64,000 bases of DNA from a phage: the sequence record OZ413487.1; one strand, 5' to 3'. Made by a program: the position numbers and the translations under genes. Shown here piece by piece: positions 8,700 to 37,821 of this stretch. The notes beneath the pieces were generated by a model. The model was given only the letters and a program-made list of their open reading frames with translations, had not been told where the DNA came from and did not search any database. The stretch's first letter is position 1, and every line of letters begins with the position of its first letter.

Positions 8700-9925
8700 T
8701 GAGCGTTATTCAACAATTCGCTAACCCGATGAATCCGCGTGAAACTGTTTTACTAGCTCACGGCATGATTAAACGTGTCAGCATCAAGCCTATCAAAGGT
8801 GCTGATCCTACAACAGGTATTAAAACCACTGTGTGGCAAGGTAAGAAAATTGAATCCAGCCACACCATCTCTTTACTGATTTCTGAACTGGATTCCTCTG
8901 ATAACCTACTTCAAGGTGGTGAAGAAGTTTGGATCAGTATGGGCGATAAGCTGCTTAAACCAGGTCATCAAGACTCTGTCTCTGTTAAAATTGATGACAA
9001 GTGGGAAACCGTAACGCCAGGATGGATCGTAAATATCCCTTTGAAGGCAAACGAGCATAACGGTAAGACCTACTACAAAGGCTCACTGGCTAAGATGGTT
9101 AAGCTGGGTGCAGGAGAGGCTCCAGCAGCGACTCAGCAGCAAAAACAGCAACAAGGTGCACAATCACAAGGCCAGAAGCAGAAACCTCAGCAGAATGCCA
9201 ATCAGGACGTTTTACGCATCTATGGTGATGTGACTCAGATTGTTGGCAACGTGGTTACTGTTAATGACCACAAGATTGGCGAAGGTGCTATGGTTGTCAC
9301 TGATGAGCAGCTTAAAGACCTGGTGGTAGGTGGTCGTGTTGCAGCCATTGTTGACAAAGACACCGGAAACATTATCAGTGGCTTCAAGGCCTATCCTCCT
9401 AAGGCAGAGAACGGCACTCAAGGCTCTGGTGGCAAGCGTAAATCCTCTTACGACCCTATCGGTGTGGAGACGGGACATAGCATCAATGCGTTGCAGATCA
9501 TCCTGGATCGCGGGTTTAAGGTGGACGACCCACTAGGCGTGGCTAAAACACTGCACGTAGTCACCATTGAGCTTAAGAAAGAGTATGCTCAAGCCACCAA
9601 CCGAACTGAAGATGAAGTAGGTGCCAGTGTCGGCAATGCGGTGTTGAACGCTTGTCGCCGTATTGACAAGAAAACGAAAGTTGATGATTTTGCAGCGGCA
9701 ATTACTGCAGAAGCAAAAGATGTCTTGACTAATCTGGCTGAGCCGTTGTACGATTGGATCAAGAACGGTGCTGGGTCCACTGACCATCAAGAACCTCAAG
9801 CTGCCAAACAGGAAGCAGCTCCACAGCAAAACACTGTAGACGCTCCTCCTGTAAATGACGAGGAAGATGACCCGATGGATCAGAATCCAGCACAGTATGA
9901 GTTCGATGACTCGATCCCTTTCTGA
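8699..9925 (+). CDS. putative ssDNA-binding protein
   Basis: C-terminus QYEFDDSIPF resembles the acidic DDDIPF tail of bacterial SSB; Gln/Pro-rich linker; sits in the replication module. N-terminal fold not verified. Confidence 0.45.
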   Translation: MSVIQQFANPMNPRETVLLAHGMIKRVSIKPIKGADPTTGIKTTVWQGKKIESSHTISLLISELDSSDNLLQGGEEVWISMGDKLLKPGHQDSVSVKIDDKWETVTPGWIVNIPLKANEHNGKTYYKGSLAKMVKLGAGEAPAATQQQKQQQGAQSQGQKQKPQQNANQDVLRIYGDVTQIVGNVVTVNDHKIGEGAMVVTDEQLKDLVVGGRVAAIVDKDTGNIISGFKAYPPKAENGTQGSGGKRKSSYDPIGVETGHSINALQIILDRGFKVDDPLGVAKTLHVVTIELKKEYAQATNRTEDEVGASVGNAVLNACRRIDKKTKVDDFAAAITAEAKDVLTNLAEPLYDWIKNGAGSTDHQEPQAAKQEAAPQQNTVDAPPVNDEEDDPMDQNPAQYEFDDSIPF

Positions 9926-10991: not shown

Positions 10992-11087
10992 CACAGGTTG
11001 AAAGGTGTGCAATTATAACTTCATAAAACGGGAGGACGCGATGAACGAAGAAAACTGGGATGTATAACTAACAGGAGACCACTGCCC

Positions 11088-22893: not shown

Positions 22894-23502
22894 TCTCCTC
22901 TTTTCCTACCACAAATGGCCCCGCCTGGCAAATGGAATAATCAACAAGCCAGCAATTAACCCCACTGTACAAACATACATATAAAATAACTATTGCATAA
23001 TTTTTCATTGTGTGGTAGCAGTGCCATTTTTACACGTTTTTCCTTCCAAAATTGCACGTAATGCAGCATTTGCACAAAATTTAACCTGATGCATATCTTC
23101 AATAGCTTGTCAACAACTAAAAATCTTTATAAGTCATACACTTACATAACTACAAAAACGTTTTCTACGTGAAAAATCGAGTATAACTATAGCCGCCAGA
23201 TCTCAGAATTTACGTACGCTCGCCATTCTATAGCCTGCTAAGCATTTATTCCAACCATAGAATAACGGAATAGTCAATACCTGCATAAAATAATTATTCG
23301 TGTAAACTGCATAACATAAATCGGCCCAGGTGTCAACATTTTTCGTAAACAGTCTGGAATTGTCACGTTAGGTTACCATAAGCAGAGAAATCTTTAGTCG
23401 TCTAATGTTTACTGTACATTACTATACTGACTGGAATCATTAGATGACTAAGAGAAAGATAAGAAATAATTAATAATGTAATTATTTTACCTGTAACAAT
23501 AA

Positions 23503-23760
23503 GGCAACTATGCAAACGAATGGCATGGCGCGACGGAGTCGCGACATAATATAAAAGCAGTAACCATCACCCCCGTGATAGTTTGTCTGCAAACTATTAA
23601 TCAGATCATAGTTGCCTTGTATTTAGTTAATCATGACATGACAAGCAAGGCAACTATAGATCTGCTAATAGTTGCCCTGCTTTTATATTATGTCATGCTA
23701 ATTATAATCAGTGCGATTATTGTCATGTATAATTATTGTCATGCAAACGAATGGCATGGC
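23503..23760. repeat. GGCAACTAT motif x4 (two inverted pairs) bracketed by 19-nt direct repeat TGCAAACGAATGGCATGGC
   Basis: Direct repeats at 23511-23529 and 23742-23760; 12-bp inverted repeat ATAGTTGCCTTG / CAAGGCAACTAT at 23608-23619 and 23646-23657. Confidence 0.6.
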
Positions 23761-23767
23761 TGATTAT

Positions 23768-23862
23768 CGGTGTGTAAACAGTCAATCATGTAAATGGTTA
23801 GCATGTGAACAATCAGGAATGTAAACAATCCAGTGTGTAAACTAATAGGTGTGTAAAAGTGT
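23768..23862. repeat. TGTAAAC iteron cluster (5 copies in ~95 bp)
   Basis: GTGTGTAAAC x2-3, ATGTAAA, AATGTAAAC at 11-25 nt spacing. Confidence 0.55.
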
Positions 23863-24134
23863 CATGTTGTGTCAGTTAGGTCACATTATGTCAGACAAGT
23901 TTTTCTCCTCTTTGTCAAGTGCTGCATGAAAAATTTACAAGCTTGTATGGTAGCATTTTTGCGGCCCTGTTTACATTCAGTAATGTATGTATAATCCTTG
24001 TTGTGTGGGCGTTTAGACGTCTAGACGGTTGGAAGTCCACAGGTCAATATCTAATCTATCGGCTGCTAACTATATCCCACACAAATAGTAAGAAATATGA
24101 TTGTTATATGCGTAAACTGTAACTCATGTTATCA

Positions 24135-24505
24135 ATCCCTGTATGGATCGCCAGTGGTGCGCATAATAGGTATTATGTTAAATTGCCCGTAATGATAACA
24201 GTTCTCACAATGATAGGTATTCTCATTCATCCACACAAAATAGGTTGCAAATGTTGTGCCACTGTGTGAACGGCCTGGCCTATTAATTTCTCTCACTGCC
24301 TCGATATTTGAGAATTGTTATCCCTGTATGGATCGCCAGTGGTGCGCATAATAGGTATTATGTTAAATTGCCCGTAATGATAACAGTTCTCACAATGATA
24401 GGTATTCTCATTCATCCACACAAAATAGGTTGCAAATGTTGTGCCACTGTGTGAACGGCCTGGCCTATTAATTTCTCTCACTGCCTCGATATTTGAGAAT
24501 TGTTA
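24135..24505. repeat. tandem duplication, two ~185-bp units
   Basis: Unit beginning ATCCCTGTATGGATCGCCAGTGGTGCGCATAATAGG... occurs twice head-to-tail, essentially identical. Confidence 0.85.
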
Positions 24506-25564
24506 TAAGAATGAGAAGTATTCCCATTCCGTCCGCCTGGCAGCACTCCTGTAGGTCCTGCAAGGACTCTAGCTGAAAGCTAGACCCTTCGGGCCTCCCT
24601 GTAGGTCAGGTCAAAATCGTGGTAGAATTGGGCCTGTTCAGATATTTCTGGCTGACTCTTCAGGTCTGTGTGGGAAAAGCCAACCTCTCCGGCGGGGCAG
24701 GGGGTCATGACGGGAAAATTGCAGGTCAATTAAAAAATTTACGTGGTGTATGAAGCGCTCTTCAGGTAAGGCATGTATTATGGGATGAAACCCTCTTCAG
24801 GCAATGATATTTGTGGGTGTGATATTTGCTGGAAAGCCAGATATGACGGGACTCCCGGCGGGGATGGGGTAGTACAGACAGGGAAAATATGAGAATGTAG
24901 TTGGGGAAATTGATCAGACAGGTAGAGTATGGAATATGTTACAAGTATGTTAAATATGGAGGTTGAATATCTGTAGGATTTGTGTGTAAAATCAAAGACT
25001 TAAGGGGTGTTGTGGTATTTTCTATAAATAATTCAAGTTTAATAGGCAATATTTGTCTCTATCCGCTTTGTGTGGTAAACAGATTCAGATTAGATTGGTT
25101 TACAAGTGTATACATAATATACAAATTAAAGATACAAGAAACCCCCCTCCCCCTTCGGCTACCATTCACCTTTTCCTCTGACTGGTACTTAAACACTTAT
25201 TCAGACTCTTCAGGTTATCACCCATATATCATATGGCAGTGACTGGTGTCCTCCGGCCCCTCTTTCGTCACCCGTCCGCTTCGCCATGCTAATGCCATAG
25301 CCAATGGTTCGGTTGTTCACTCTGTTCACTCAGGTGTATCTCCATACCCCTTCAAACCGAAGAGAACAGAAAACCCGAATTACTCGGTAAAAGAAAAGAG
25401 AAGAACTTAATTTTATCAGGATAGGCAAGAATGTCAAGGCATGACTGCTCACTAAACAAGCAAACAGTCATGTGTGGAAGGTAAGTGATTGTGGTGGTGG
25501 GAAATTTAGTTGAAAGATGTGTTATAGGTGCTCCCAGCACTTTAGCCGGGTAGCTAATTGTGTG

Positions 25565-25846
25565 TCAGTCCAGTGGTTCATCACCTACTTCACTGAAATC
25601 AATGTTCATGGTCTCCTCCCAACCATCAATCTCAGCACCAGAGTAGAGATCTTTAGGACTTACTCCCAAAGCATCAGCAACAGAGTCCATATTTAACACC
25701 TCTGGCAGGTATGATTCATCGAATTCAAGGTAAATCAGGCCACGAGTGTTGTCAGCTCCACCAAATATTTCTATCTTCATGAAATCTCCTCTGGGAATGA
25801 GAGTGTGAACAGGGTTTATACGTTCCAATGCGCTGGAATTATGCAC
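25565..25846 (-). CDS. hypothetical acidic protein
   Basis: ORF track; last gene of the - strand block. Confidence 0.4.
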   Translation of the reverse strand: MHNSSALERINPVHTLIPRGDFMKIEIFGGADNTRGLIYLEFDESYLPEVLNMDSVADALGVSPKDLYSGAEIDGWEETMNIDFSEVGDEPLD

Positions 25847-26473: not shown

Positions 26474-26785
26474 CTATACCCACGAGGGCTTATCAAGGTT
26501 GGAGTAGCTGAAAGGTGTCAAAAGGTGACTGTCAAAATCTCTCAAACTATCCAAATCTTTTTCCTCGTCCTGACACCATCTGTGCCTACATTTGTTGTTG
26601 TAGTGCATGGAATGCATAGCGTTCTGCAACTTAACAGGCACAAGTGATTCAGGAGTAGATAGTATTGTTGGGTATGCCAGAACCACCTCAAACAGTGGAA
26701 ACACATCGAAACTAAAGTCTACCTCTGCAGAGGTTGATGGCATATAGGAGTATTTAGCCGCCTTTGTAGACATAATCCACCTCAC
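26474..26785 (-). CDS. hypothetical protein
   Basis: ORF track. Confidence 0.4.
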   Translation of the reverse strand: MRWIMSTKAAKYSYMPSTSAEVDFSFDVFPLFEVVLAYPTILSTPESLVPVKLQNAMHSMHYNNKCRHRWCQDEEKDLDSLRDFDSHLLTPFSYSNLDKPSWV

Positions 26786-27910: not shown

Positions 27911-28174
27911 TCATTTATCCTTGTCGTCAAGAACTTTTTTAAATCTTTCAGGGATATCTCCCGTTCTTAGATAGTTCATGACCTCGCAAGGTTCCCACTT
28001 GAATTTCTTACAGAGCAGGGCGGCTGAGATTGTTTCATTGCGAAAAGAAAGGATATTAATATCCCACTCTGAGAACCCCAACTTCCGAAGGGTAGCTACA
28101 GAAATCCTCACCGCAACCCAGCAGCAAAAACATGCAACAAACGCCACTGCTACAACCCACATCAGGATGTTCAT
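27911..28174 (-). CDS. hypothetical membrane protein
   Basis: N-terminal TM segment ILMWVVAVAFVACFCCWVAV. Confidence 0.4.
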   Translation of the reverse strand: MNILMWVVAVAFVACFCCWVAVRISVATLRKLGFSEWDINILSFRNETISAALLCKKFKWEPCEVMNYLRTGDIPERFKKVLDDKDK

Positions 28175-28263
28175 ATAAGCACCTTACTGAAATACAAGAC
28201 ACAGTGTTAAGGTTACTGACCAGCAAATAATTAACAGTGCCGTTGCAACCTTGGCAAGATTTA

Positions 28264-28551
28264 TCATAGTGCCTCTAAGATTTCATATCCTTCGGGTCGG
28301 AATACAAGCCACTCCGTGGCTCCGTTTGGTCGATACGCTTTATACAGAACAACCTGATCTCGGCACATGCACATGGCTACATAGTTTTCATCCACACCTG
28401 CAGCCTGCATTGCATCTTCTTCTCCGGCAACCGCTTTGCTTACAACTTCCTTGGTAGGCAGGTGTGCGATCAGCTCGTCACCATCATTAATTCCAAAATG
28501 GCTGAGTTCTCCATTGGTATCTTTGATCTTAATCTTAACCAGATCTTTCAT
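28264..28551 (-). CDS. hypothetical small protein (MKI/MKV paralog group)
   Basis: ORF track; abutting neighbours. Confidence 0.45.
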   Translation of the reverse strand: MKDLVKIKIKDTNGELSHFGINDGDELIAHLPTKEVVSKAVAGEEDAMQAAGVDENYVAMCMCRDQVVLYKAYRPNGATEWLVFRPEGYEILEAL

Positions 28552-28880
28552 TAGTCTTTCTCCAGGTTCAAAGGTCCTAAGATTTCATATGCCAGATTAG
28601 AAGTTACAAGAGGGTCTTCTGCGTCTTTAGTATTATACCACCCGTGAATAACCAGAGTCCCACTTTGTTTCATGTCCAACTGTAACTCTTCTGCCGTTTC
28701 CTCATCCAGCTCCAAGATTTCCATAAGGTATTTGATGTTAGGGAGGTATGCAGCTGTTACAGTCCCCTCTACCAGACCTTCAGGCCAACCTACATCTGGA
28801 TGACAAGTAGGAACCAGGTTGGTCAGCTTAATGGTGTACGCTTTTTCTGCACGAGCCTTCAGTAACGGGTCAATCTTCAT
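28551..28880 (-). CDS. hypothetical small protein (MKI/MKV paralog group)
   Basis: ORF track; start codon overlaps upstream stop. Confidence 0.45.
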   Translation of the reverse strand: MKIDPLLKARAEKAYTIKLTNLVPTCHPDVGWPEGLVEGTVTAAYLPNIKYLMEILELDEETAEELQLDMKQSGTLVIHGWYNTKDAEDPLVTSNLAYEILGPLNLEKD

Positions 28881-29230
28881 TATTCGTCCTCCTCTTCGGT
28901 ACCTGCTTCCAGTAATAAGTTAAGAATATCTTCTGCACAAGGCTCATAGAACTCTTGGCCTTCATTATCGATGATTTTATAGTCATCTCCACGAATAATC
29001 AGGGGATCACTCTCAAAATTATCGAGACCTTTAACAACGACAACACGATCGATTGCCATCATTGTAAGAACTTTATCGACATCTTCCTCTGCTACACCAT
29101 ACTGCAGCAGAATGTCTTTGGTAGGAGGAACAGCATCCACCACAACGCCGTTACCAAAACCTTCTGGAAGTTTAGCTAAAATATCTTCCGGAACCACATT
29201 CACATCAAAACCGGTAATTTCTACTTTCAT
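28880..29230 (-). CDS. hypothetical small acidic protein (MKI/MKV paralog group)
   Basis: ORF track. Confidence 0.45.
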   Translation of the reverse strand: MKVEITGFDVNVVPEDILAKLPEGFGNGVVVDAVPPTKDILLQYGVAEEDVDKVLTMMAIDRVVVVKGLDNFESDPLIIRGDDYKIIDNEGQEFYEPCAEDILNLLLEAGTEEEDE

Positions 29231-29491
29231 TTACAGCACCTCTTCGTCAACTACTTCATAAAAATGGCCTGGGATTGCAATAGCGTTCTCACCTTCACCT
29301 ACAAACACAGTTCCGTCAAGAATCAACATCATAAGAATTTCTGTAATATCCTCTTCCGGAACGTTGCCAAAACCTTTAATCAGCTCGTAGGTTGGAATAT
29401 TTACCTCTAAGATGTCACCATCTTTAGAACGGAAATCAACACCGTCCTGAATCTCTGCCGTTTCAAGGTTTTTCAATTTAATCTTCATCAA
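29231..29491 (-). CDS. hypothetical small protein (MKI/MKV paralog group)
   Basis: ORF track. Confidence 0.45.
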   Translation of the reverse strand: MMKIKLKNLETAEIQDGVDFRSKDGDILEVNIPTYELIKGFGNVPEEDITEILMMLILDGTVFVGEGENAIAIPGHFYEVVDEEVL

Positions 29492-29567
29492 TCGGTCTCC
29501 TGTCTTGTTAAGATGAAGGTATTATTTCACACAGGGTTGGCGTTGTCAACACCTGTGTGCAAGAAAA

Positions 29568-29963
29568 TTACTGAAACAGTGCGGATAAATTACCTTCTGG
29601 TGGGAACTTATCTGCCAAAAACGGTGTTAGCACAGTAGCCCTCTGAAGATCTGGGGTCCACTCGTTGTTCAGAACATCCCAGTAGTACGCAATGTTGCTG
29701 TGTGGGTGCCGCATTACGAACTTTTTCCCTTCGTAGTCATCTGAAACCTCTACAGAAGAAATAACAACAGAATCTTCAAGGGTTTCTTCATAGAAAGATC
29801 CACCTTCAAATTTCCAACGAGATGCAAGAGCCCCTGCCTTGAACGCTGCAGATAACGGACTGTCGGCAAGAACATACATTTCTTGCACTCTGTCGCTGCG
29901 ATCTTTGCTTCTTACGTTGTATACAGTATCTGAGCTATACTCAACACGGTATAGGCTTACCAT
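29568..29963 (-). CDS. hypothetical protein, paralog of 31770..32168
   Basis: Shared block HPHSNIAYYWDVLNNEWTP vs HPDSRVKHYWNARTKTWTP. Confidence 0.5.
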   Translation of the reverse strand: MVSLYRVEYSSDTVYNVRSKDRSDRVQEMYVLADSPLSAAFKAGALASRWKFEGGSFYEETLEDSVVISSVEVSDDYEGKKFVMRHPHSNIAYYWDVLNNEWTPDLQRATVLTPFLADKFPPEGNLSALFQ

Positions 29964-30322
29964 TACCGAACCTCCTCAATAACTTCCACATCTGAACCTA
30001 CCACAAATGCAAAAGGACAGGTTTCATGAAAGATATCCGGATCGCCGCCAAGCTTGCTAACAATTTCTCCACCACTAATAAACACAAGCTCACCGATATT
30101 CATCAGATTGCTGAAATAGTACCCATAATGATTAAAGAATGCAGCAGGGTCAGGTAGACTAGTAGCCTCAAGCACTACATCGGTTGAGGTTACTTTCTTA
30201 TCATAACCTCTCGCCTTTTGAGATGCAAGATCTGCAGAATCCTCAGGCGACCGGAGATGCACAGGAATTGTTTCACCAATAAAGCGTACTTTCATATTAT
30301 CACCCAACAACCATAGCTTCAA
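29963..30322 (-). CDS. hypothetical protein (family A-like, MKVRFIGE...)
   Basis: ORF track; internal Met start plausible. Confidence 0.45.
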   Translation of the reverse strand: MKLWLLGDNMKVRFIGETIPVHLRSPEDSADLASQKARGYDKKVTSTDVVLEATSLPDPAAFFNHYGYYFSNLMNIGELVFISGGEIVSKLGGDPDIFHETCPFAFVVGSDVEVIEEVR

Positions 30323-30563
30323 AAGGAGTCATGAACGAATAAACGGCATCATCATCTGCTTCAGGGAATGCTCCCAAAGACTTCATATCTGAGCCCTTGA
30401 CAAATACAAGGTTTTGATCAAAGGCTTCTTGGGGGTCAATCCGATACATATTTCGTAAAATATCGCTTACCTCCTCATCAAGAGGTGAGTATGCTGTGCA
30501 CGTTTTTCCGATCAAGCTTTGAGAATCAGGGTATCCACCTGAAGTTTTAAAATAAACAATCAT
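30300..30563 (-). CDS. hypothetical protein
   Basis: ORF track. Confidence 0.4.
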   Translation of the reverse strand: MIVYFKTSGGYPDSQSLIGKTCTAYSPLDEEVSDILRNMYRIDPQEAFDQNLVFVKGSDMKSLGAFPEADDDAVYSFMTPFEAMVVG

Positions 30564-30654
30564 ATAGTATCACCTCTGGTAAGAGATTGGGACTCCTTTC
30601 CCACAAATAATTACAAATCTTCCTTAGCGAGGAAGTATGCTAATCCAAGCAGGA

Positions 30655-30924
30655 TTATTCCTCTACAATCTCATACACATCAGGAGTTACAATCAACTCT
30701 TCTCCGTTACCCGGTGCAACAAACACCACCAAACCTTCAGGTGTGTGCTTTTTAGCCATCTCGATAACATCTTCTCGCAGAGCTGGCTCCATCAGATCAA
30801 AACCTTCACCTAGGGCATCACGAACCACCTTCATATAGTCCACTGGTTGTGCTTCAACAATCATGCCTTCAACCAGTCCACAATTTTTGTCTGCCAGCTC
30901 AGTTTGGAATAATTTAATTTTCAT
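30655..30924 (-). CDS. hypothetical small protein (MKIK paralog group)
   Basis: ORF track. Confidence 0.45.
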   Translation of the reverse strand: MKIKLFQTELADKNCGLVEGMIVEAQPVDYMKVVRDALGEGFDLMEPALREDVIEMAKKHTPEGLVVFVAPGNGEELIVTPDVYEIVEE

Positions 30925-31061
30925 TTAGAGGTCTCCTCAATTATTTGATATTAATAGCCGTAACCTAACACATTAACTACAACTGCGATTGCAAACATAA
31001 TTTCAAAGCATGCAATCTCTACATTTGGGACTAATTTCTTAATCACACCCATTGTAGCACC

Positions 31062-31379
31062 TCATTCTCCAAAGTCAATCTTTACTTTGCCTTTCCCCTT
31101 ACCTTTCTTTCCACCGCATTTAGCCAGCTGACGTGCTGCAACATCTACCATACGGTCAGTTGCCTCGTAAGCATCACTGCCTTTAGCCTTGGCAATAACT
31201 TCTTTTCCAGAATTGTCAAAAATGAACGCCATAACTTCCTGGTGATCATTTTCAACTTTTACACTCACACGTGCATAGTTGGCAGAGGGATGCAAACGCT
31301 CCAACTTAGACATTTTGTGGGAAATGAAAGACACCATACCTTCAGTGATTTCTACGTTGCCAGTGATTTCAATTTGCAT
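31062..31379 (-). CDS. hpf: ribosome hibernation promoting factor / RaiA (YfiA) family homolog
   Basis: MQIEITGNVEITEGM...KLERL...DAYEATDRMVDVAARQLAK aligns with E. coli HPF MQLNITGNNVEIT...KFAKLEQ...DMYAAIDGLIDKLARQLTK; Lys/Gly-rich C-tail. Confidence 0.65.
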   Translation of the reverse strand: MQIEITGNVEITEGMVSFISHKMSKLERLHPSANYARVSVKVENDHQEVMAFIFDNSGKEVIAKAKGSDAYEATDRMVDVAARQLAKCGGKKGKGKGKVKIDFGE

Positions 31380-31427
31380 AACGTGTTCCTTTTAAAGAAG
31401 AGGGAACCGAACCCTCTTTGAAAACAA

Positions 31428-31455
31428 TGATACTAAATCTGAAGCGTTGTGTCAA
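31428..31455 (-). promoter_or_regulatory. sigma70-like promoter for hpf-like gene (TTGACA-17-TATCAT on - strand)
   Basis: Followed in the 5' UTR by hairpin AAGAGGG-TTCGGTT-CCCTCTT (31389-31409) and RBS AAAAGGAA. Confidence 0.5.
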
Positions 31456-31461
31456 CAGTTT

Positions 31462-31752
31462 TTACAGATTGTTGTCGATAGTTTTTAAAATATCCACAGC
31501 AAGATCTGCCATTTTTCGAACATACTCTGCAAACTCAACAGGATCCTTGATCAAAGAATTCACAGGGTCGTACCCTAGAGCGTTCAAAATGGCTGCAGCA
31601 TCTACAACCTTCTCATCATTTGCGAAGATCTCTCCATCAAACTTGTAGGTCCATTTTGAGTCAATCTTGGCAGGGAATGATTGGTCAACGCTTGTTACAC
31701 CATCCTTTTTAAACGCTCCGGTGTTATCAGTGTCTAGAACTAAATCCATCAT
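31462..31752 (-). CDS. hypothetical protein
   Basis: ORF track. Confidence 0.45.
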   Translation of the reverse strand: MMDLVLDTDNTGAFKKDGVTSVDQSFPAKIDSKWTYKFDGEIFANDEKVVDAAAILNALGYDPVNSLIKDPVEFAEYVRKMADLAVDILKTIDNNL

Positions 31753-31769
31753 GTTAGTACCTCACCGTT

Positions 31770-32168
31770 TCAGTTTAGCTTTTCTTCAACAACCCCATAG
31801 CTCGGGACAGAGTCAAGAGCTTTCTGGTTTAAAAGTGGTGTAGCAGAATCTGCAAACGGTGTCCAAGTTTTTGTTCTGGCGTTCCAGTAATGCTTCACTC
31901 TGGAATCTGGATGCACTATAACAAAAACTTTTTCACTTGTCAACACATTAATTTCTTCCACACCCCTGCTGATAATTTCTCCGTCATATCCCCCGGTCTG
32001 GTATCCTTCGTACCAGGTTCTTGCATAGGCATAGCCAGCCTGCCAGCATGCAGCCTCCTCCGAGGTGGAGACTACGTAGAAGTCTTTCTCAAATTCTGGG
32101 ATACGCCCTTGCTTTACGCTCCAAGCTCCGCGAATTTTCATTGTAACTTTGAATAGTTTATTTTTCAC
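31770..32168 (-). CDS. hypothetical protein, paralog of 29568..29963
   Basis: Shared conserved block (see 29568). Confidence 0.5.
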   Translation of the reverse strand: MKNKLFKVTMKIRGAWSVKQGRIPEFEKDFYVVSTSEEAACWQAGYAYARTWYEGYQTGGYDGEIISRGVEEINVLTSEKVFVIVHPDSRVKHYWNARTKTWTPFADSATPLLNQKALDSVPSYGVVEEKLN

Positions 32169-32180
32169 AACGGTTACCCA

Positions 32181-32435
32181 TCACAGTTCTACAATATCTG
32201 CATCTGACCCTGCCCCAAAGGCATAATAGGACTCTTCCCCGAAATAATATTCCGGTGCACCAGCAGCGATCAGGTCTGATCCCAAAATGAATACCACGTT
32301 GTGGCCTACATAGCTGTGATTTTGCCGCACAGGATCATCCCACGGCAACCCTTCGAAGTATACCGCAGGGACGACCTTTCCTTTCAGGAAGGATTGCCCC
32401 AAGTAGACGTTAGAATCAAGAATTTTAACCTTCAT
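32181..32435 (-). CDS. hypothetical small protein, MKVKxLD family
   Basis: MKVKILD N-terminus and GSDLIAAGA motif shared with 32425..32652 and 36065..36298. Confidence 0.5.
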   Translation of the reverse strand: MKVKILDSNVYLGQSFLKGKVVPAVYFEGLPWDDPVRQNHSYVGHNVVFILGSDLIAAGAPEYYFGEESYYAFGAGSDADIVEL

Positions 32436-32652
32436 GATCGTCCTCCACTATCTCTACATCCTCACCTAGGGCAAAGTTGTAGGTCCACTGACTGTCAAAG
32501 CATTCCTGAGATGCACCAGCGGCAATAAGATCTGCCCCTTTTATTTTTAAAAGGTCAGGGTAATCTTCGTTAGGGACAGCAGTAAACACTTTCCCTACTA
32601 AAGGCTCCTGACCAATATAGAAGCTTGAATCTAAAACTTTAACTTTCATCAA
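32425..32652 (-). CDS. hypothetical small protein, MKVKxLD family
   Basis: MMKVKVLD...GADLIAAGA. Confidence 0.5.
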   Translation of the reverse strand: MMKVKVLDSSFYIGQEPLVGKVFTAVPNEDYPDLLKIKGADLIAAGASQECFDSQWTYNFALGEDVEIVEDDHEG

Positions 32653-32936
32653 CGGTCTCCATCAGGTGGTTGTGGGACGTAAACACTGTTACGAATATCG
32701 TCCGCAGTATAGTAATAAGTGTCTCCAACCCTATCTCTGGCTGCAATGTACTCTGCTATACCAATAAGTGCCATTGATTTGGTGGCGTATCTTCCCCACT
32801 CGTTAGCTCCCCAGTAGAATTTAGACCAGTAGGGAATAATACCGAACAAATATACCTTTTGACGAACTTCCCAGTAAGTGCCTTTTCCGACAAGTTTAAA
32901 CTCTACTTCACTACTGTTAATCTTTTTCATTATCAA
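32649..32936 (-). CDS. hypothetical protein
   Basis: ORF track. Confidence 0.45.
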   Translation of the reverse strand: MIMKKINSSEVEFKLVGKGTYWEVRQKVYLFGIIPYWSKFYWGANEWGRYATKSMALIGIAEYIAARDRVGDTYYYTADDIRNSVYVPQPPDGDR

Positions 32937-33229
32937 TCTCCCTCTACCGTGGTCGGATTGTCAGTAAGAAATTGAGCATTGGCTGGAGGCACGCCTGACA
33001 TTTTCCACACAACCATAAGTTTGTAACCAGGAACTCTATTAAGTGCAGATCGAGTAGAGTTTGTGCACGTATACTTTCGCTTTCCAAACCCGTTCTCCAT
33101 CATAATCCAGTACCCAGTATCTTTGTCACCAGGTATCGGTAGACCACCTTCATCAACCCACTGAATGGACCACGGCACGATGGCTACAGCTTTATATTTA
33201 AACTTTTTAAACCACTCAAAAAGTTTCAT
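32933..33229 (-). CDS. hypothetical protein
   Basis: ORF track. Confidence 0.45.
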   Translation of the reverse strand: MKLFEWFKKFKYKAVAIVPWSIQWVDEGGLPIPGDKDTGYWIMMENGFGKRKYTCTNSTRSALNRVPGYKLMVVWKMSGVPPANAQFLTDNPTTVEGD

Positions 33230-33324
33230 AATTCAGCCTCGCATAGACATAATCACTATAAACAGGCAAACAATGAATCCGAATGCCACGCCACCCATAA
33301 ACGTTAATATTGATGCAATCATAG

Positions 33325-33510
33325 TCAATCAGCCTCGCTTGGCAACTCTTCTACCTTAACATGCCGAAAAGTGTTACCGTAATGGTTGATCCATGACATC
33401 AGCTCGCTTTCTTGCTCTTCCTCTGGGATGAACTCTCGAATGCTGACAAGTTTTAAGAAAACCCAATCACAATCTGCACCCATTCTACCAGACAGGCAAT
33501 AGTGCTTCAT
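33325..33510 (-). CDS. hypothetical protein
   Basis: ORF track. Confidence 0.35.
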   Translation of the reverse strand: MKHYCLSGRMGADCDWVFLKLVSIREFIPEEEQESELMSWINHYGNTFRHVKVEELPSEAD

Positions 33511-33528
33511 AAAAACCCCCCGCCTGGT

Positions 33529-33723
33529 TTAGAATATTGCTTCTTCCATTGCACCTGAGAGCAACAAAGAGGTGATCTGGCTAACATTCATCTCAGACTC
33601 TACTTCCTCCCCTTTGAAAGGTTCGCGGCAGAATAGGACTGTTTCAGGACTTTTACTTCGAACAATATAATACAAATCATTCAATGTGTTGTAGTAATAA
33701 GTGTTAAAACGTAAGTTTTTCAT
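33529..33723 (-). CDS. hypothetical protein
   Basis: ORF track. Confidence 0.4.
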   Translation of the reverse strand: MKNLRFNTYYYNTLNDLYYIVRSKSPETVLFCREPFKGEEVESEMNVSQITSLLLSGAMEEAIF

Positions 33724-34007
33724 TTTCTAGTCCCCTTCTTAGATTTTTGTGTAGAAACGCTTTCTGCAATACGAGACAAACGTTCTTCTGAAGCCTTGCC
33801 TATTCCAGGTTTTTTGAGTGGGTTATCTTTATGACCACAATCCAATTGGATATTGGATACCTCTCCAACCTTGTAAGTCAATTCTAGCAAAAGGTTGTCG
33901 TCCTTGTCAAATGTTCTTACGATAAATTTTTTATCGTTCTCCTGAACTTCGTATCGGGTACCCGCAGTATACAGCATGGTGCCATCCGCATAGGATATCC
34001 AGATCAT
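33720..34007 (-). CDS. hypothetical protein
   Basis: ORF track. Confidence 0.4.
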   Translation of the reverse strand: MIWISYADGTMLYTAGTRYEVQENDKKFIVRTFDKDDNLLLELTYKVGEVSNIQLDCGHKDNPLKKPGIGKASEERLSRIAESVSTQKSKKGTRK

Positions 34008-34351
34008 TGAACCTCCTTCTGCTGCAACAGCATTAACTCTTTGTTGGAGATTTTTACTGCTGTTTTTATTGTTCCATCTTCACGAAACCACGACCAGAAC
34101 TCTACAGTGTCCCCACTGTCAAGCAAAGCATACCCGTGGTAGAAGTCTTTGTCCTTAGACAGTTTCTCATCTATGTCTGCATCGACACATTCGTGATCCA
34201 TAGCATTTTGCCTGAATGCATCGGTTATACCAATGCACGCCTTGCTCTCAAGACTGGTATATCCGATATCTTTTAATTCAGTTTCCCAAGTCCAGTACCC
34301 TATAAAAGCTAAAACAGCTACCCACATTAATAACGTTTTAATCTTTGGCAT
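34004..34351 (-). CDS. hypothetical protein with N-terminal signal/TM segment
   Basis: LLMWVAVLAFIGYWTW hydrophobic N-terminus. Confidence 0.4.
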   Translation of the reverse strand: MPKIKTLLMWVAVLAFIGYWTWETELKDIGYTSLESKACIGITDAFRQNAMDHECVDADIDEKLSKDKDFYHGYALLDSGDTVEFWSWFREDGTIKTAVKISNKELMLLQQKEVQ

Positions 34352-34413
34352 TCTCTCTACCTCTTTCTTAGTTTATTTCACTATGGCACATCCTTTGTGC
34401 CATATCTCAACCA

Positions 34414-34875
34414 CTACTTAAATAGTAGTCCAAAATAGTGCAAAATTAACAGAAGTTGAACTACACCTAGTGCAACGGCGAGTATGTTAATCTTAGAATC
34501 GAAAAACTTCTTAACTTTTACTCTAAAAGGTTCCTTAATGTCCTTTACGATCCTATTTATAGATGATTTCATATCCCTGATTACCATCCTAAACATTAGA
34601 GACGGATCTTCCTTCTCTGTAATAGAATCGAAAACATACTCTCTTCGGTCATAAGGACCTCCAGATCTGCGTATTAACCTCTCCACAGAGACCTCGTACG
34701 ACACACCTGTAACGTAATCATCTATGATAAGTAGTGACGGGTCTTTATCGTCCAAGGGTATTAAAGTTATCTTTCCAGATTTTGTTAAAATTTCTCCTTT
34801 TTCAAGCAAGGTGTACCAATGCTCTCTACCAAGATTGTTGAGGCACGTTTTTACATATTTAACAAACATCGTCAC
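34414..34875 (-). CDS. hypothetical protein with C-terminal TM anchor
   Basis: C-terminal ILAVALGVVQLLLILHYFGLLF. Confidence 0.4.
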   Translation of the reverse strand: MTMFVKYVKTCLNNLGREHWYTLLEKGEILTKSGKITLIPLDDKDPSLLIIDDYVTGVSYEVSVERLIRRSGGPYDRREYVFDSITEKEDPSLMFRMVIRDMKSSINRIVKDIKEPFRVKVKKFFDSKINILAVALGVVQLLLILHYFGLLFK

Positions 34876-35075
34876 CCCTCATCGCACGTCTGATATAACC
34901 ACTCTATGAAATCTTGATACCATTCGCCCTCTGAGCGCTCCGTAGGCCAATAATCTTCACCCTCTCGTGCATTAAAATCTGAGTATTCAACTTTCCACTC
35001 CTTTACCAGCTCGTGGAGAAGGTTTTCAGCCTGCTCTAAAGATTTATTTTTTGCCATTGCTGTCTCCTTTTTCAA
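34872..35075 (-). CDS. hypothetical protein
   Basis: ORF track. Confidence 0.4.
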   Translation of the reverse strand: MKKETAMAKNKSLEQAENLLHELVKEWKVEYSDFNAREGEDYWPTERSEGEWYQDFIEWLYQTCDEG

Positions 35076-35276
35076 GATAGTTATACATCAGAACTGCACC
35101 ACCTAAGATGGCTACCAGTAACAATATCCCAGATAGCATCTCAATAAACATGGCTTGAAACACTGGAAGGTCTCCCTAAATTAACGCACCATTTTAAATA
35201 CATGCTCTTTTCCCATAAAGGTGCCTGGCTAAGATCTGCGTAGAACGCAATCTCTTTAAGAACAGTATAGATAGTT

Positions 35277-35504
35277 TTAGGTGCGGTCTCCATCCCTACT
35301 CTCCTTCCTGATATTCTTGTAGTAATCAACTAGGCACATTGTTACGATGAAGATAACAACAGGCCAAAAAGGTGCAGCAGTGATGATGGTGATAAAATCA
35401 TCAAACTTCACCCTTCGTCTGGACACGATGCATACACCTGTCAAGAATGCCGCTGTTATAACGGACATTACCAGGTAACCTATTAGCACAACATTTATAC
35501 TCAT
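35277..35504 (-). CDS. hypothetical membrane protein
   Basis: Two hydrophobic segments. Confidence 0.4.
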   Translation of the reverse strand: MSINVVLIGYLVMSVITAAFLTGVCIVSRRRVKFDDFITIITAAPFWPVVIFIVTMCLVDYYKNIRKESRDGDRT

Positions 35505-35534
35505 TGGTCCTCCCTTTGTAGGTTAAATTGTATA

Positions 35535-36068
35535 CTACAAATGGTCGCTGAGGGTGTCAAGAAAATTATCCCGTTCTTTCTCAGAGTTTTCATGTGTGTA
35601 GCTGAAAAACATATCGAGAATAACCTTATTGATATATTCCAGCTCCTCTGTGTTCAGATGCTTAGCAGGATCTACAATGACATCCCAAATATCATACAGA
35701 CCACACTCATGATACCCATAACGCCACTCAATTGTCAAGCTGAGCGGCAAATCTTTACCTTCACAAACAACCTTCCATCTACATATGTTGGTATCTGGTC
35801 GTACCTGTGCACGGTACACCTGCACAAAATCCAATTTGAATTTGAGGTACTCGTCATACAATTTAAGCACAAAGCTCTCGATTTGTGGAGACACTTTTGC
35901 AGCAAACTGTGCGTATTTGTACTTGCACTGGATGATCTTTCTACGTTTTGCAGTTAAATTTTTTGCCGCCAGTTGTTCTTCAGTGTATCTCCACCTACGA
36001 TCAACAAACGCAACAGGGTCTTTGTCCCCATAGAGGTCTTCCCAGTTAATCAGAAGCATACCTGTCAC
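35535..36068 (-). CDS. hypothetical protein
   Basis: ORF track. Confidence 0.45.
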   Translation of the reverse strand: MTGMLLINWEDLYGDKDPVAFVDRRWRYTEEQLAAKNLTAKRRKIIQCKYKYAQFAAKVSPQIESFVLKLYDEYLKFKLDFVQVYRAQVRPDTNICRWKVVCEGKDLPLSLTIEWRYGYHECGLYDIWDVIVDPAKHLNTEELEYINKVILDMFFSYTHENSEKERDNFLDTLSDHL

Positions 36069-36298
36069 TCCTCCACAACTTCAAGGCCTTTACCGCCTCG
36101 CTCTGGCAGATTACTTAAAGATAGGTAATACATATAATCAGGAGAGATCCTGCCAGACTCTGCACCTGCAGCTAGTAAATCCTTCCCTTTAACCAGGACA
36201 ACATTCTCGTTTGCAGATAGCCGTTTTGCTTCCACAATTTTACCAACACAGTCAACCAAGGAAGGGTACCCTAAATCTGTAAGAAATTTAACTTTCAT
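36065..36298 (-). CDS. hypothetical small protein, MKVKxLD family
   Basis: MKVKFLTD...GKDLLAAGA. Confidence 0.5.
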   Translation of the reverse strand: MKVKFLTDLGYPSLVDCVGKIVEAKRLSANENVVLVKGKDLLAAGAESGRISPDYMYYLSLSNLPERGGKGLEVVEE

Positions 36299-36335
36299 GC
36301 TACCTCCTACCTACCGTCCCTGGTAAGATAAATTA

Positions 36336-36734
36336 TTACTGAACAGAGCGCGGTGCTGGGAAGGATAACTCCTCTAAAGAGAAGATTTCATTTCCTACCA
36401 CCCAAGTTGCTGGGTCATCTGGATCAACAGGTTGGATAATCATTACCTCATCCGCCTCGCACACACGTTTCCCACCCATAGTAGCGTCAGCCACTAACAT
36501 ACGCGGCTCTTCAGAAATGCACAGGTAGCCACCTCGGCCCACTGTTCCTTCCACGGGATCCTGCCCTTTGACCACAATGAATACCTTCTCTCCTGTGGAG
36601 ATATTACTTTTCACACTAACAGTTTGACCAACTTTAGATGTACCGATCTTGGTGGCTTCAAACATTAAATCCCGAATTACTGTTGCATAGTTGCCGGACA
36701 CTTTCTTACCTTCTTTAGTAATCTCAATCTTCAT
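36336..36734 (-). CDS. hypothetical protein
   Basis: ORF track. Confidence 0.45.
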   Translation of the reverse strand: MKIEITKEGKKVSGNYATVIRDLMFEATKIGTSKVGQTVSVKSNISTGEKVFIVVKGQDPVEGTVGRGGYLCISEEPRMLVADATMGGKRVCEADEVMIIQPVDPDDPATWVVGNEIFSLEELSFPAPRSVQ

Positions 36735-37006: not shown

Positions 37007-37321
37007 CTACCAGGTTACTGTCAAGTAGGCAACCGTATTATTTTTCTCTGGGGAGATGCCAACAACATCTACCTGCAGACCTCCTGCCCTTAAATCTCCA
37101 ACAATGTGAGGGAAGTAATCTGAGAGATGCGAGGGTAGATTTATCGAAAATCCGCACCCCAGAAAGCCTGCTAACGCTTTATTTTGTATCTCCCCCACAA
37201 TCGCATCATAAATGGAGTTAAGCTCGTCAGGGAGCGTTACAGGACGTTTTAGCGCTAACTGGTGTAATTTGTCCTTAGCACTCATTTTCATTTCAGGTCT
37301 ACCTCTGGAGGTGCCAACCAC
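37007..37321 (-). CDS. hypothetical protein
   Basis: ORF track. Confidence 0.4.
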   Translation of the reverse strand: MVGTSRGRPEMKMSAKDKLHQLALKRPVTLPDELNSIYDAIVGEIQNKALAGFLGCGFSINLPSHLSDYFPHIVGDLRAGGLQVDVVGISPEKNNTVAYLTVTW

Positions 37322-37821
37322 ATAAACGGCGGCAAGTCTAAACGGTTTTTCTTATCCCACACAAAATATGCATATGCTTGCCCGTCAGTTCTGCCGTTTG
37401 ATTGAAATGATGGACGCTTAGATATTGTGATCACAGTAGTAGGTGCATTATCAAGCCACCATTCAAATCTGGCTTTGCTTTCCAGAAAATTAAGACGCAA
37501 AAGCATAATAACTACGTCAGCATCTTTCAACGCCTTGTCTACAAACTCACGAGCCAGGCTGTATGGTGGGTTGGTGATAATACAGTCAACATGGTTGTAT
37601 TCTGTATTCAGATAGTCAACACCTTCTTGTATTTCTCCCCATGCAGATCCTAACGGCATACGGGAGTAGAACACACCTGAGGCACTATTCCTGCAAGGCT
37701 CTAAGTAGGTCCAGTCTTCTGGGAACGGAATAAGGTCATACAGCCCTTCTGCACACCACTCCGGTGTCACATACTCATCGTAGGCGTTACGTTGTTCATC
37801 AGGTTTTCGAGCACAAGTCAT
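37288..37821 (-). CDS. small phage-type N6-adenine DNA methyltransferase
   Basis: Catalytic motif IITNPPY preceded by motif-I-like LEPCRNSASGVF; ~177 aa. Confidence 0.65.
   Translation of the reverse strand: MTCARKPDEQRNAYDEYVTPEWCAEGLYDLIPFPEDWTYLEPCRNSASGVFYSRMPLGSAWGEIQEGVDYLNTEYNHVDCIITNPPYSLAREFVDKALKDADVVIMLLRLNFLESKARFEWWLDNAPTTVITISKRPSFQSNGRTDGQAYAYFVWDKKNRLDLPPFMWLAPPEVDLK

Follow-up and report, generated by a model that had tools for sequence, protein, structure and literature searches.

The sequence examined here is a 64,000-nucleotide (nt) stretch of phage DNA (record OZ413487.1; hereafter the window), and the genes of interest lie on its minus strand between positions 28264 and 36298. 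Over positions 28000-36500 the window shares 99.4% identity with Escherichia phage JohannBauhin (BASEL Bas53, an rV5-like Vequintavirus), and 122 phage records, almost all of them rV5-like coliphages, match the same interval at 90-99% identity. The block 28264-36298 corresponds to bas53_0142 to bas53_0169 in JohannBauhin, 28 small minus-strand coding sequences (CDSs). All are annotated as 'hypothetical' except for two, one named as a ribosome hibernation factor and the other, doubtfully, as a 'glycosidase'. It forms the distal end of a long leftward gene array that begins near the RNA ligase gene and also carries nucleotide-metabolism, replication, PhoH, ClpP-like and methylase genes. Twelve of the approximately 28 genes in the block fall into three paralogous families, referred to as A (five genes), B (five) and C (two). 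At least three groups of paralogous open reading frames (ORFs) had been proposed here from the sequence alone (the original prediction); all the ORFs it named are present on the minus strand and are annotated CDSs in JohannBauhin.

Paralogy was assessed by all-versus-all blastp of 34 minus-strand ORFs, by Smith-Waterman alignment against 1000 composition-preserving shuffles (given as z), and by comparing hidden Markov models (HMMs) of the families with the 573 ORFs of the window. The 540 non-family pairs provided the background, with a mean z of 0.1 and a standard deviation of 1.1. In family A, A2 and A3 are 42% identical (blastp E=2e-15, z=24), and A1 is related to both A2 (blastp E=1e-7, z=13) and A3 (z=8). 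The two remaining members are more divergent. A4 gave z=4.9-6.6 and a weak match to phrog_5009 (E=1.2e-4). A5 joins the family through its C-terminal half (z=6.9-7.6; hhalign E=2.9e-6 to A3); it gave no match to the phrog_5009 HMM and was placed by the HMM built from the window instead (E=2.8e-4). It had been listed as a probable member of what was then described as the MKVKxLD group, and that assignment was correct. Family B corresponds to the earlier MKI(K/E) group (28551-29491 and 30655), and the gene at 28264 also belongs to it. Profile comparison joined B2 to B3 (hhalign E=8e-6 across 82 columns, 27% identity) and B5 to B4 (E=9e-5 across 77 columns), while several family B pairs were weak when taken singly (z=1.5-3.8). 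The 130-amino acid (aa) pair at 29568 and 31770, previously noted as sharing HP(H/D)S...YW...WTP, constitutes family C, the motif HPxS...YW...WTP being common to both proteins (blastp E=1e-10, z=16.6, 27% identity across 112 residues). The family HMMs gave no matches among the 573 ORFs beyond the family members themselves. The families are larger than had been described, two members, including A4 (30300-30563), having been missed. The coordinates are given in Table 1.

Table 1. Members of families A, B and C and associated features of the block. Orthologues in phage Bas54 are given as bas54 numbers.
Feature	Position in window	Strand	Remarks
A1, 77 aa	36065..36298	-	bas54_0166 / rV5 ORF127 orthologue; phrog_5009 E=8e-36; z=13 to A2
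A2, 74 aa, protein modelled	32425..32649	-	bas54_0159; phrog_5009 E=1e-38
A3, 84 aa	32181..32435	-	bas54_0158; phrog_5009 E=5e-32; overlaps A2 stop by 11 nt
A4, 87 aa, divergent, loop insertion	30300..30563	-	bas54_0152 (100% aa identity); family A HMM E=2e-6
A5, 110 aa, divergent, N-terminal insertion	29963..30295	-	bas54_0151 (100% identity); HMM E=2.8e-4
B1, 95 aa	28264..28551	-	bas54_0146; z=7.0 to B3, z=4.7 to B4
B2, 109 aa	28551..28880	-	bas54_0147; family B HMM E=0.0027
B3, 116 aa, net charge approximately -21, protein modelled	28880..29230	-	bas54_0148; z=7.9 to B4
B4, 85 aa	29231..29488	-	bas54_0149; first gene past promoter P150
B5, 89 aa, downstream of HPF gene	30655..30924	-	bas54_0153; z=5.2 to B4
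C1, 131 aa	29568..29963	-	bas54_0150 (98.5% identity); phrog_7379 E=5e-66
C2, 132 aa from GTG 32168	31770..32168	-	bas54_0157; phrog_7379 E=1.5e-73
HPF / S30AE-family ribosome hibernation protein	31062-31379	-	Pfam E=1.8e-12; own sigma-70 promoter
Sigma-70-type promoter upstream of HPF (rV5 'P144')	31427..31455	-	TTGACA-17-TATCAT, 11/12; L014 equivalent at 9261
Sigma-70-type promoter upstream of B4-B3-B2-B1 (rV5 'P150')	29521..29549	-	TTGACA-17-AATAAT with TG, 11/12; L014 equivalent at 11043
Weak terminator-like hairpin between B5 and A4	30619..30635	-	6-bp stem, T-rich tail; consensus match only

The PHROGs database already clusters A1-A3 (phrog_5009) and C1-C2 (phrog_7379), both labelled 'unknown function'. 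A1-A3 match the former profile over its full length, and C1 and C2 cover all the positions (131/131) of the latter. The rest are placed in seven single-gene families (phrog_13920, 13661, 12794, 12457, 12155, 12359 and 11868), and the database records no function, fold or paralogy for the families. The placing of A4 and A5 in family A and the grouping of the five family B genes are new here, and the rV5 genome paper makes no mention of paralogs. It could be argued that there are no true families, and that chance or composition makes short, acidic proteins beginning with MK(V/I)K look alike. The individually weak B pairs would fit such an explanation, as would the absence of a significant link between A and B. 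However, the core pairs gave z=7-24 against shuffles that preserve composition, the family HMMs picked only block members among 573 ORFs, and the same families were recovered independently in PHROGs and in L014, a metagenomic relative described below. For A, C and the core of B the chance explanation is already refuted, and as a whole it is scarcely credible.

In an all-versus-all profile comparison of 36 block genes the top pairs were almost all within-family. Families A and B gave hhalign P=0.003 with a profile probability of 9-10%, confined to the N-terminal 27-28 columns, which is not significant; the best single A-B pair was B5/A1 (profile-profile E=0.0028). Comparisons of A with C and of B with C were also not significant. 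Two further pairings, 32649/32933 (hhalign E=3e-7) and C2/35535 (E=4e-5), were rejected as families since the alignments were short, gapped and derived from very shallow profiles. A resemblance between residues 11-55 of B4 and residues 62-107 of the N6-adenine methylase encoded at 37288-37821, around its NPPY motif, gave z=6.7 with a profile probability of 2.9%, and is probably due to chance. B5 is named 'sigma 54 modulation factor' in several records, a name which has no Pfam support and is probably wrong.

All 12 family genes have an ATG start, most of them with GGAG or GAGG 5-10 nt upstream, and the longer form of C2 starts with GTG. The start of C2 has been annotated in two ways, ie at ATG 32141 in BASEL (123 aa) and at GTG 32168 in rV5, ECP26 and SYGMH1 (132 aa). 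Neither start is preceded by a strong Shine-Dalgarno sequence. The longer form regains an N-terminal L(Y/F)(K/R)(V/I) strand (LFKV in C2) that is kept in C1, P0099 and P0100, and judged by this motif it is the form we favour.

Gene-wide ratios of nonsynonymous to synonymous substitution (dN/dS) were 0.02-0.20 against four to five genomes (dS 0.1-1.0), with a single short-branch value of 0.38, which identifies the family genes as proteins under purifying selection. Across about 120 Vequintavirus genomes the orthologues are 90-100% identical at the nt level, the same range as for the flanking ClpP-like and methylase genes, and in 115 of the 122 phage records the block is covered to 80% or more, at 90-99% identity. 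A more distant comparison was provided by L014, a 128-kb metagenomic relative (ClpP-like protein 69% and PhoH 74% identical) which is gene-for-gene syntenic with the window. Exactly five A and five B genes are kept there 1:1 and in the same order, together with one C gene; there is no C2 orthologue. Identity to L014 is 42-74% for A, 29-60% for B and 40% for C, compared with 31-87% for the other genes of the block, so the families are at the faster end of the range of divergence in the block but are not exceptional. Since all ten A and B genes are retained 1:1, the duplications predate the split and every copy has been kept since, which argues for separate functions and not for a churning arsenal. 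The description of the families as 'diversifying' in the original prediction is therefore not upheld: the dN/dS values are low, content and sequence are nearly fixed in about 120 genomes, and the A and B genes are syntenic 1:1 in the sister lineage. A search of GenBank phages by tblastn with two divergent homologues (P0099 and P0029) found Vequintavirus only, so the sister lineage is uncultured. An additional gene of 98 aa (L014 11092-11388; Pfam PF27050, Phage_P22_Y8K6) lies between C1 and B4 in L014.

Families B and C are confined to the rV5-like phages and this sister lineage. An exhaustive HMMER search with family C gave five real clusters, all from close or sister-lineage phages; the repeat proteins P0102-P0104 were rejected as relatives because their matches were additive and of low complexity. 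Family A has single-copy relatives (approximately 40-50% identical to A1) in lambdoid prophages of E. coli, where they always lie between the Q antiterminator and holin genes, an accessory (moron-type) position. Such prophage relatives are found in 17 of 5426 complete E. coli genomes. When a single prophage protein was used as query, relatives were also found in 46 IMG/VR contigs of about 50-57 kb, each with a single copy and without B or C. As the relatives of A are single-copy elsewhere, the five-fold expansion of family A is specific to the rV5 lineage. Some metagenomic rV5-like phages carry hybrid genes with the N-terminus of A2 and the C-terminus of A3, joined at GADLIAAGA (P0011, P0016; L010 7916-8384), and in phage SYGMH1 the A3 allele is divergent (77% nt identity). 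These two observations are evidence for recombination between the tandem paralogs. The repeated A-A-C gene order (A2-A3-C2 and A4-A5-C1) suggested a segmental duplication, an idea that was rejected as A2 and A3 are mutually closest; the profile comparison of A4 with A5 gave only E=0.014.

Structures were predicted for one member each of families A and B. The AlphaFold model of A2, made from a 36-sequence alignment, had a predicted local distance difference test score (pLDDT) of 91.8 and consists of five strands with a short helix at the conserved GxDL(I/L)AAGA; that of B3, with a lower pLDDT of 76, appears to be an SH3/KOW-like five-strand barrel with a helical insertion. The top structural matches of both models were all of the SH3-like class (Spt5/NusG KOW domains, ribosomal L24, PsaE and eukaryotic SH3 domains), with 50-57 residues superposing at 2.5-3.1 Å. 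Family A is predicted to be an SH3/KOW-like five-strand barrel and family B may have the same fold; that they form one superfamily is a hypothesis to which the sequence profiles add no significant link. From model and alignment, A3 and A4 carry their long inserts between strands 2 and 3, in the loop where B has its helical insertion, and the extra segment of A5 falls between strands 1 and 2. When 75 sequences from families A and B were compared with Pfam, no model matched even at the permissive threshold of E<=5, KOW and SH3 included, and Pfam, NCBIfam and PDB sequence searches with single proteins and with whole alignments gave only noise. Compared with the SH3/KOW families, the rV5-like proteins lack the KOW and SH3 sequence signatures, are acidic and stand alone; B has the helical insertion, and A a GxDL(I/L)AAGA turn not seen in those families. 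A Foldseek search of BFVD found the same predicted fold in many uncharacterised phage proteins of 65-90 aa (TM score 0.63-0.87, probability 1.0) from T4-like and other enterobacterial phages (among them RB49 Q76ZG7, Merlin A0A0K1LND4, Sf20 A0A2K9VNT9 and CS01 A0A3B8E0L0). These relatives are only 14-25% identical and are not known as multi-copy genes, and they add to the distribution of the fold, not to its function. Ten of the 12 family proteins have an isoelectric point of 4.0-4.7, which is more in keeping with a role in binding or mimicking proteins than with RNA binding of the KOW type.

In the interval 25-40 kb of the window, 15 of the 16 best sigma-70-like matches are on the coding strand, many of them with a perfect TTGACA, and several keep the same intergenic position in L014. 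The rV5 paper reports 33 such promoters genome-wide, and P144 and P150 are annotated there. Because the promoters are of host type, are annotated in rV5 and hold their position in L014, transcription is likely to be by the unmodified host polymerase.

Two natural deletions within the block are further signs of local recombination. In Bas59 (L008) an in-frame deletion of 3.8 kb (window 31856-35662), across a 15-bp microhomology, has taken out A2, A3 and the greater part of C2, the tail of which is now fused to gene 35535; this phage plaques normally. In Bas54 (L062) a deletion of 1.85 kb (window 32994-34839) takes out the orthologue of rV5 gp133. Mass spectrometry of rV5 virions identified 19 proteins, of which only gp133 (window 34414-34875) comes from the block; no family member, and none of rV5 ORFs 127, 140-142 and 146-154, is among the 19. 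The small size and acidity of the family proteins, and the prominence of gp133 in the virion data, would suit virion or injected internal proteins like those of T4. However, the family genes lie outside the structural module and Bas54 is viable without even the gp133 orthologue, which shows that gp133 is not essential for particles. Taken with the absence of all the family ORFs from the detected proteins, this makes a place in the virion very improbable.

The most direct functional data come from Bas54 (MaxBurger), for which a saturated transposon library is described in the HIDEN-SEQ preprint (10.1101/2025.11.20.689424). Its orthologues are 95-100% identical in protein sequence to the family genes of the window, and 98-100% for A4, A5, C1 and C2. 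On K-12, transposon sequencing (Tn-seq) classified nine of the 12 genes as 'non-essential' (B1-B4, C1, C2 and A1-A3) and three as 'intermediate' (A4, A5 and B5; saturation 0.69-0.73) (10.1101/2025.11.20.689424). The comparison of K-12 with the uropathogenic strain CFE311 (sheet S7) gave a different picture for part of the set. Insertions in A4, A5 and C1 fell to zero reads (log2 fold change -7.16, -6.17 and -6.77, respectively; adjusted p 0) and those in C2 were down 4-fold (-2.14, adjusted p 0), while the change for B5 (-2.78) was not significant and the other seven members and HPF were unaffected (10.1101/2025.11.20.689424). The depletion of A4, A5, C1 and C2 was not discussed by the authors, who pursued only bas54_0063 and bas54_0140, as anti-DS-28 genes (10.1101/2025.11.20.689424). 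For the latter, a need in overcoming DS-28, a defence system of E. coli CFE311, was validated (10.1101/2025.11.20.689424). The orthologue of bas54_0140 in the window (26480-26779, minus strand, 97% aa identity) belongs to the same cluster of small genes, 1.5 kb past the end of the block, and is outside families A-C. In Extended Data Table 8 of the preprint (10.1101/2025.11.20.689424) the stored sheet before S7 (S6, K-12 versus CFE303) repeats the S7 numbers for bas54_0080-0168 and may be a duplicate; the CFE303 data were not used.

We consider it probable, though far from certain, that the three families, which are ancient and lineage-specific, encode small accessory proteins that are for the most part acidic, are not part of the virion and act on the host, some of them being needed in particular hosts. 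They arose by old local duplications, after which each copy was maintained on its own by purifying selection, and this separate maintenance points to distinct, non-redundant jobs. The A and B proteins would be small SH3/KOW-like barrels whose paralogs differ in their strand 2-3 loop insertions and tails, and a barrel with variable loops and tails is, if the models hold, the usual build of a small protein-binding module. Transcribed by the host sigma-70 RNA polymerase from several internal promoters, they might bind host proteins stoichiometrically and neutralise or redirect them. They are dispensable in K-12, but the A4-A5-C1 run and, to a lesser extent, C2 are required, polar effects aside, for growth on CFE311, most probably because the run counters an obstacle inside the cells of that strain, for instance an anti-phage defence system. 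The original prediction of a host-interaction or anti-defence role thus stands in its first part for A4, A5, C1 and C2, on the CFE311 Tn-seq data; an anti-defence mechanism is unproven.

A rival reading is that of general host-takeover factors, ie barrels that modulate translation, proteolysis or transcription and whose importance depends on host physiology. This would explain the 'intermediate' class and lowered insertion saturation of B5, A4 and A5 on K-12, as well as the dependence on strain. The neighbours include the hibernation factor homologue, a ClpP-like protease, PhoH and methylases, with B5 sharing a promoter-to-terminator stretch with HPF; gene content is conserved like that of core functions, and Spt5/NusG KOW and ribosomal L24 are among the closest structural neighbours. 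However, nine of the 12 genes are fully dispensable on K-12, where HPF is non-essential too, the strong acidity speaks against KOW-like RNA binding, and a Pfam KOW or SH3 signature is absent. The all-or-nothing loss on CFE311 also resembles that of the validated bas54_0063 and bas54_0140. We regard general takeover factors as the less likely explanation, but one that deserves serious weight. Accessory factors internal to the phage, for instance regulators or chaperones acting on components of its own transcription, replication or assembly, would account for the 1:1 conservation in a diverged lineage and for the long leftward unit shared with replication and nucleotide-metabolism genes. This is improbable given that the genes are dispensable on K-12 and in Bas59, that the requirement is specific to one host, and that unrelated lambdoid prophages carry a single family A gene in an accessory position.

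Several observations weigh against the reading as host-directed accessory proteins. Since A4, A5 and C1 are contiguous and co-directional, with P150 directly after C1, the signals of A4 and A5 may be no more than polar effects of the insertions on C1, and what the Tn-seq data prove is a need for at least C1. The independent depletion of C2, the paralog of C1, does argue that family C itself matters. The eight genes besides A4, A5, C1 and C2 have no phenotype in K-12 or CFE311. Bas59 plates like Bas57 and Bas58 on the 11 immunity systems EcoKI, EcoRI, EcoRV, EcoCFT_I/II, EcoP1, RexAB, PifA, Fun/Z, Old and Tin, a result that bears on A2, A3 and C2 only. Gene content is nearly fixed across the genus, unlike that of typical anti-defence islands, which vary between close relatives. 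The predicted fold covers A and B only. The literature yielded no transcriptome of a Vequintavirus, and the early timing of expression is presumed. The need in CFE311 could stem from a difference in host physiology and not from a defence system.

The data fit best if at least family C, and perhaps A4 and A5 as well, helps the phage past something that CFE311 has and K-12 lacks. The barrier in CFE311 is most likely a defence system, to judge by analogy, because validated anti-defence genes behave identically in the same table. The anti-defence genes obtained by Tn-seq (bas54_0140 against DS-28, T4 nrdC.1 against Septu and bas37_0203 against Druantia III; 10.1101/2025.11.20.689424) are, like the present families, small ORFs without domains. 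They are dispensable in K-12 and heavily depleted in one clinical isolate, the same signature as that of A4, A5 and C1. The four genes of the window differ in that no cognate system has been matched to them, there are no clean knockouts, and there is no sequence similarity to bas54_0140. A bolder proposal is that A and B form one SH3-like superfamily, expanded to ten copies only in rV5-like phages and single-copy in temperate phages, and that together with C they make up a fixed intracellular counter-defence toolkit in which every paralog has its own E. coli immune system to disarm. A new anti-defence family directed at a system of CFE311 would then be defined by the A4-A5-C1 cassette and C2, and the toolkit would add, besides the tail fibres, to the broad host range of the Vequintavirinae. 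We offer it tentatively and think it unlikely.

Large lytic phages commonly carry small early genes that are paralogs of one another. One parallel is the set of internal proteins IPI, IPII and IPIII of T4, which are small and paralogous and are also mentioned in the HIDEN-SEQ preprint; a type IV restriction enzyme is blocked by IPI*. Like families A-C, these are small, diverged paralogs of a large coliphage with a lytic cycle; a separate target is presumed for each, and they are dispensable in laboratory strains and needed in particular hosts. Unlike families A-C, the T4 proteins are packaged in the capsid by means of an N-terminal signal, and there is no relation in sequence or predicted fold.

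Some other features of the locus were recorded. The HPF homologue is labelled 'ATP-dependent protease La type I' in one GenBank record. The gene at 34414-34875 is named either 'HNH homing endonuclease' or 'structural protein', and that at 35535-36068 'putative glycosidase'; the first pair of annotations conflict, and all lack Pfam support and are probably wrong. Between the converging gene arrays, at approximately 23056-25567, there is a stretch of about 2.5 kb without annotated genes, called 'non-coding' in the rV5 genome paper, where the cumulative GC skew peaks. A perfect tandem repeat of 2 x 185 bp lies within it in the window (24135-24506) and appears to be single-copy in Bas54. No Tn-seq insertions in Bas54 were found in this stretch, suggesting an essential locus, and an Rfam search of it gave no matches. 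Finally, 18 GenBank 'Campylobacter phage' records (MG0656xx) share 95-98% identity with rV5-like phages of E. coli in the block, which suggests that they are mislabelled or contaminating coliphage genomes.

The rV5-like phages rank among the broad-host-range coliphages most often isolated and are candidates for therapy, and most of their small genes are uncharacterised. While paralogs of this kind were already known, what is new is the families, the fold predicted for them and the CFE311 phenotype, which had been overlooked. Twelve anonymous ORFs are resolved into three defined families, old and individually maintained, with a predicted fold for A and, less securely, for B. Four of the genes (C1, A5, A4 and C2) are tied to a host-specific need that had gone unremarked, and they possibly represent a new counter-defence family. 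If the signals of A4 and A5 reflect only polarity on C1 the result is smaller, but it would still provide one new determinant of host range.

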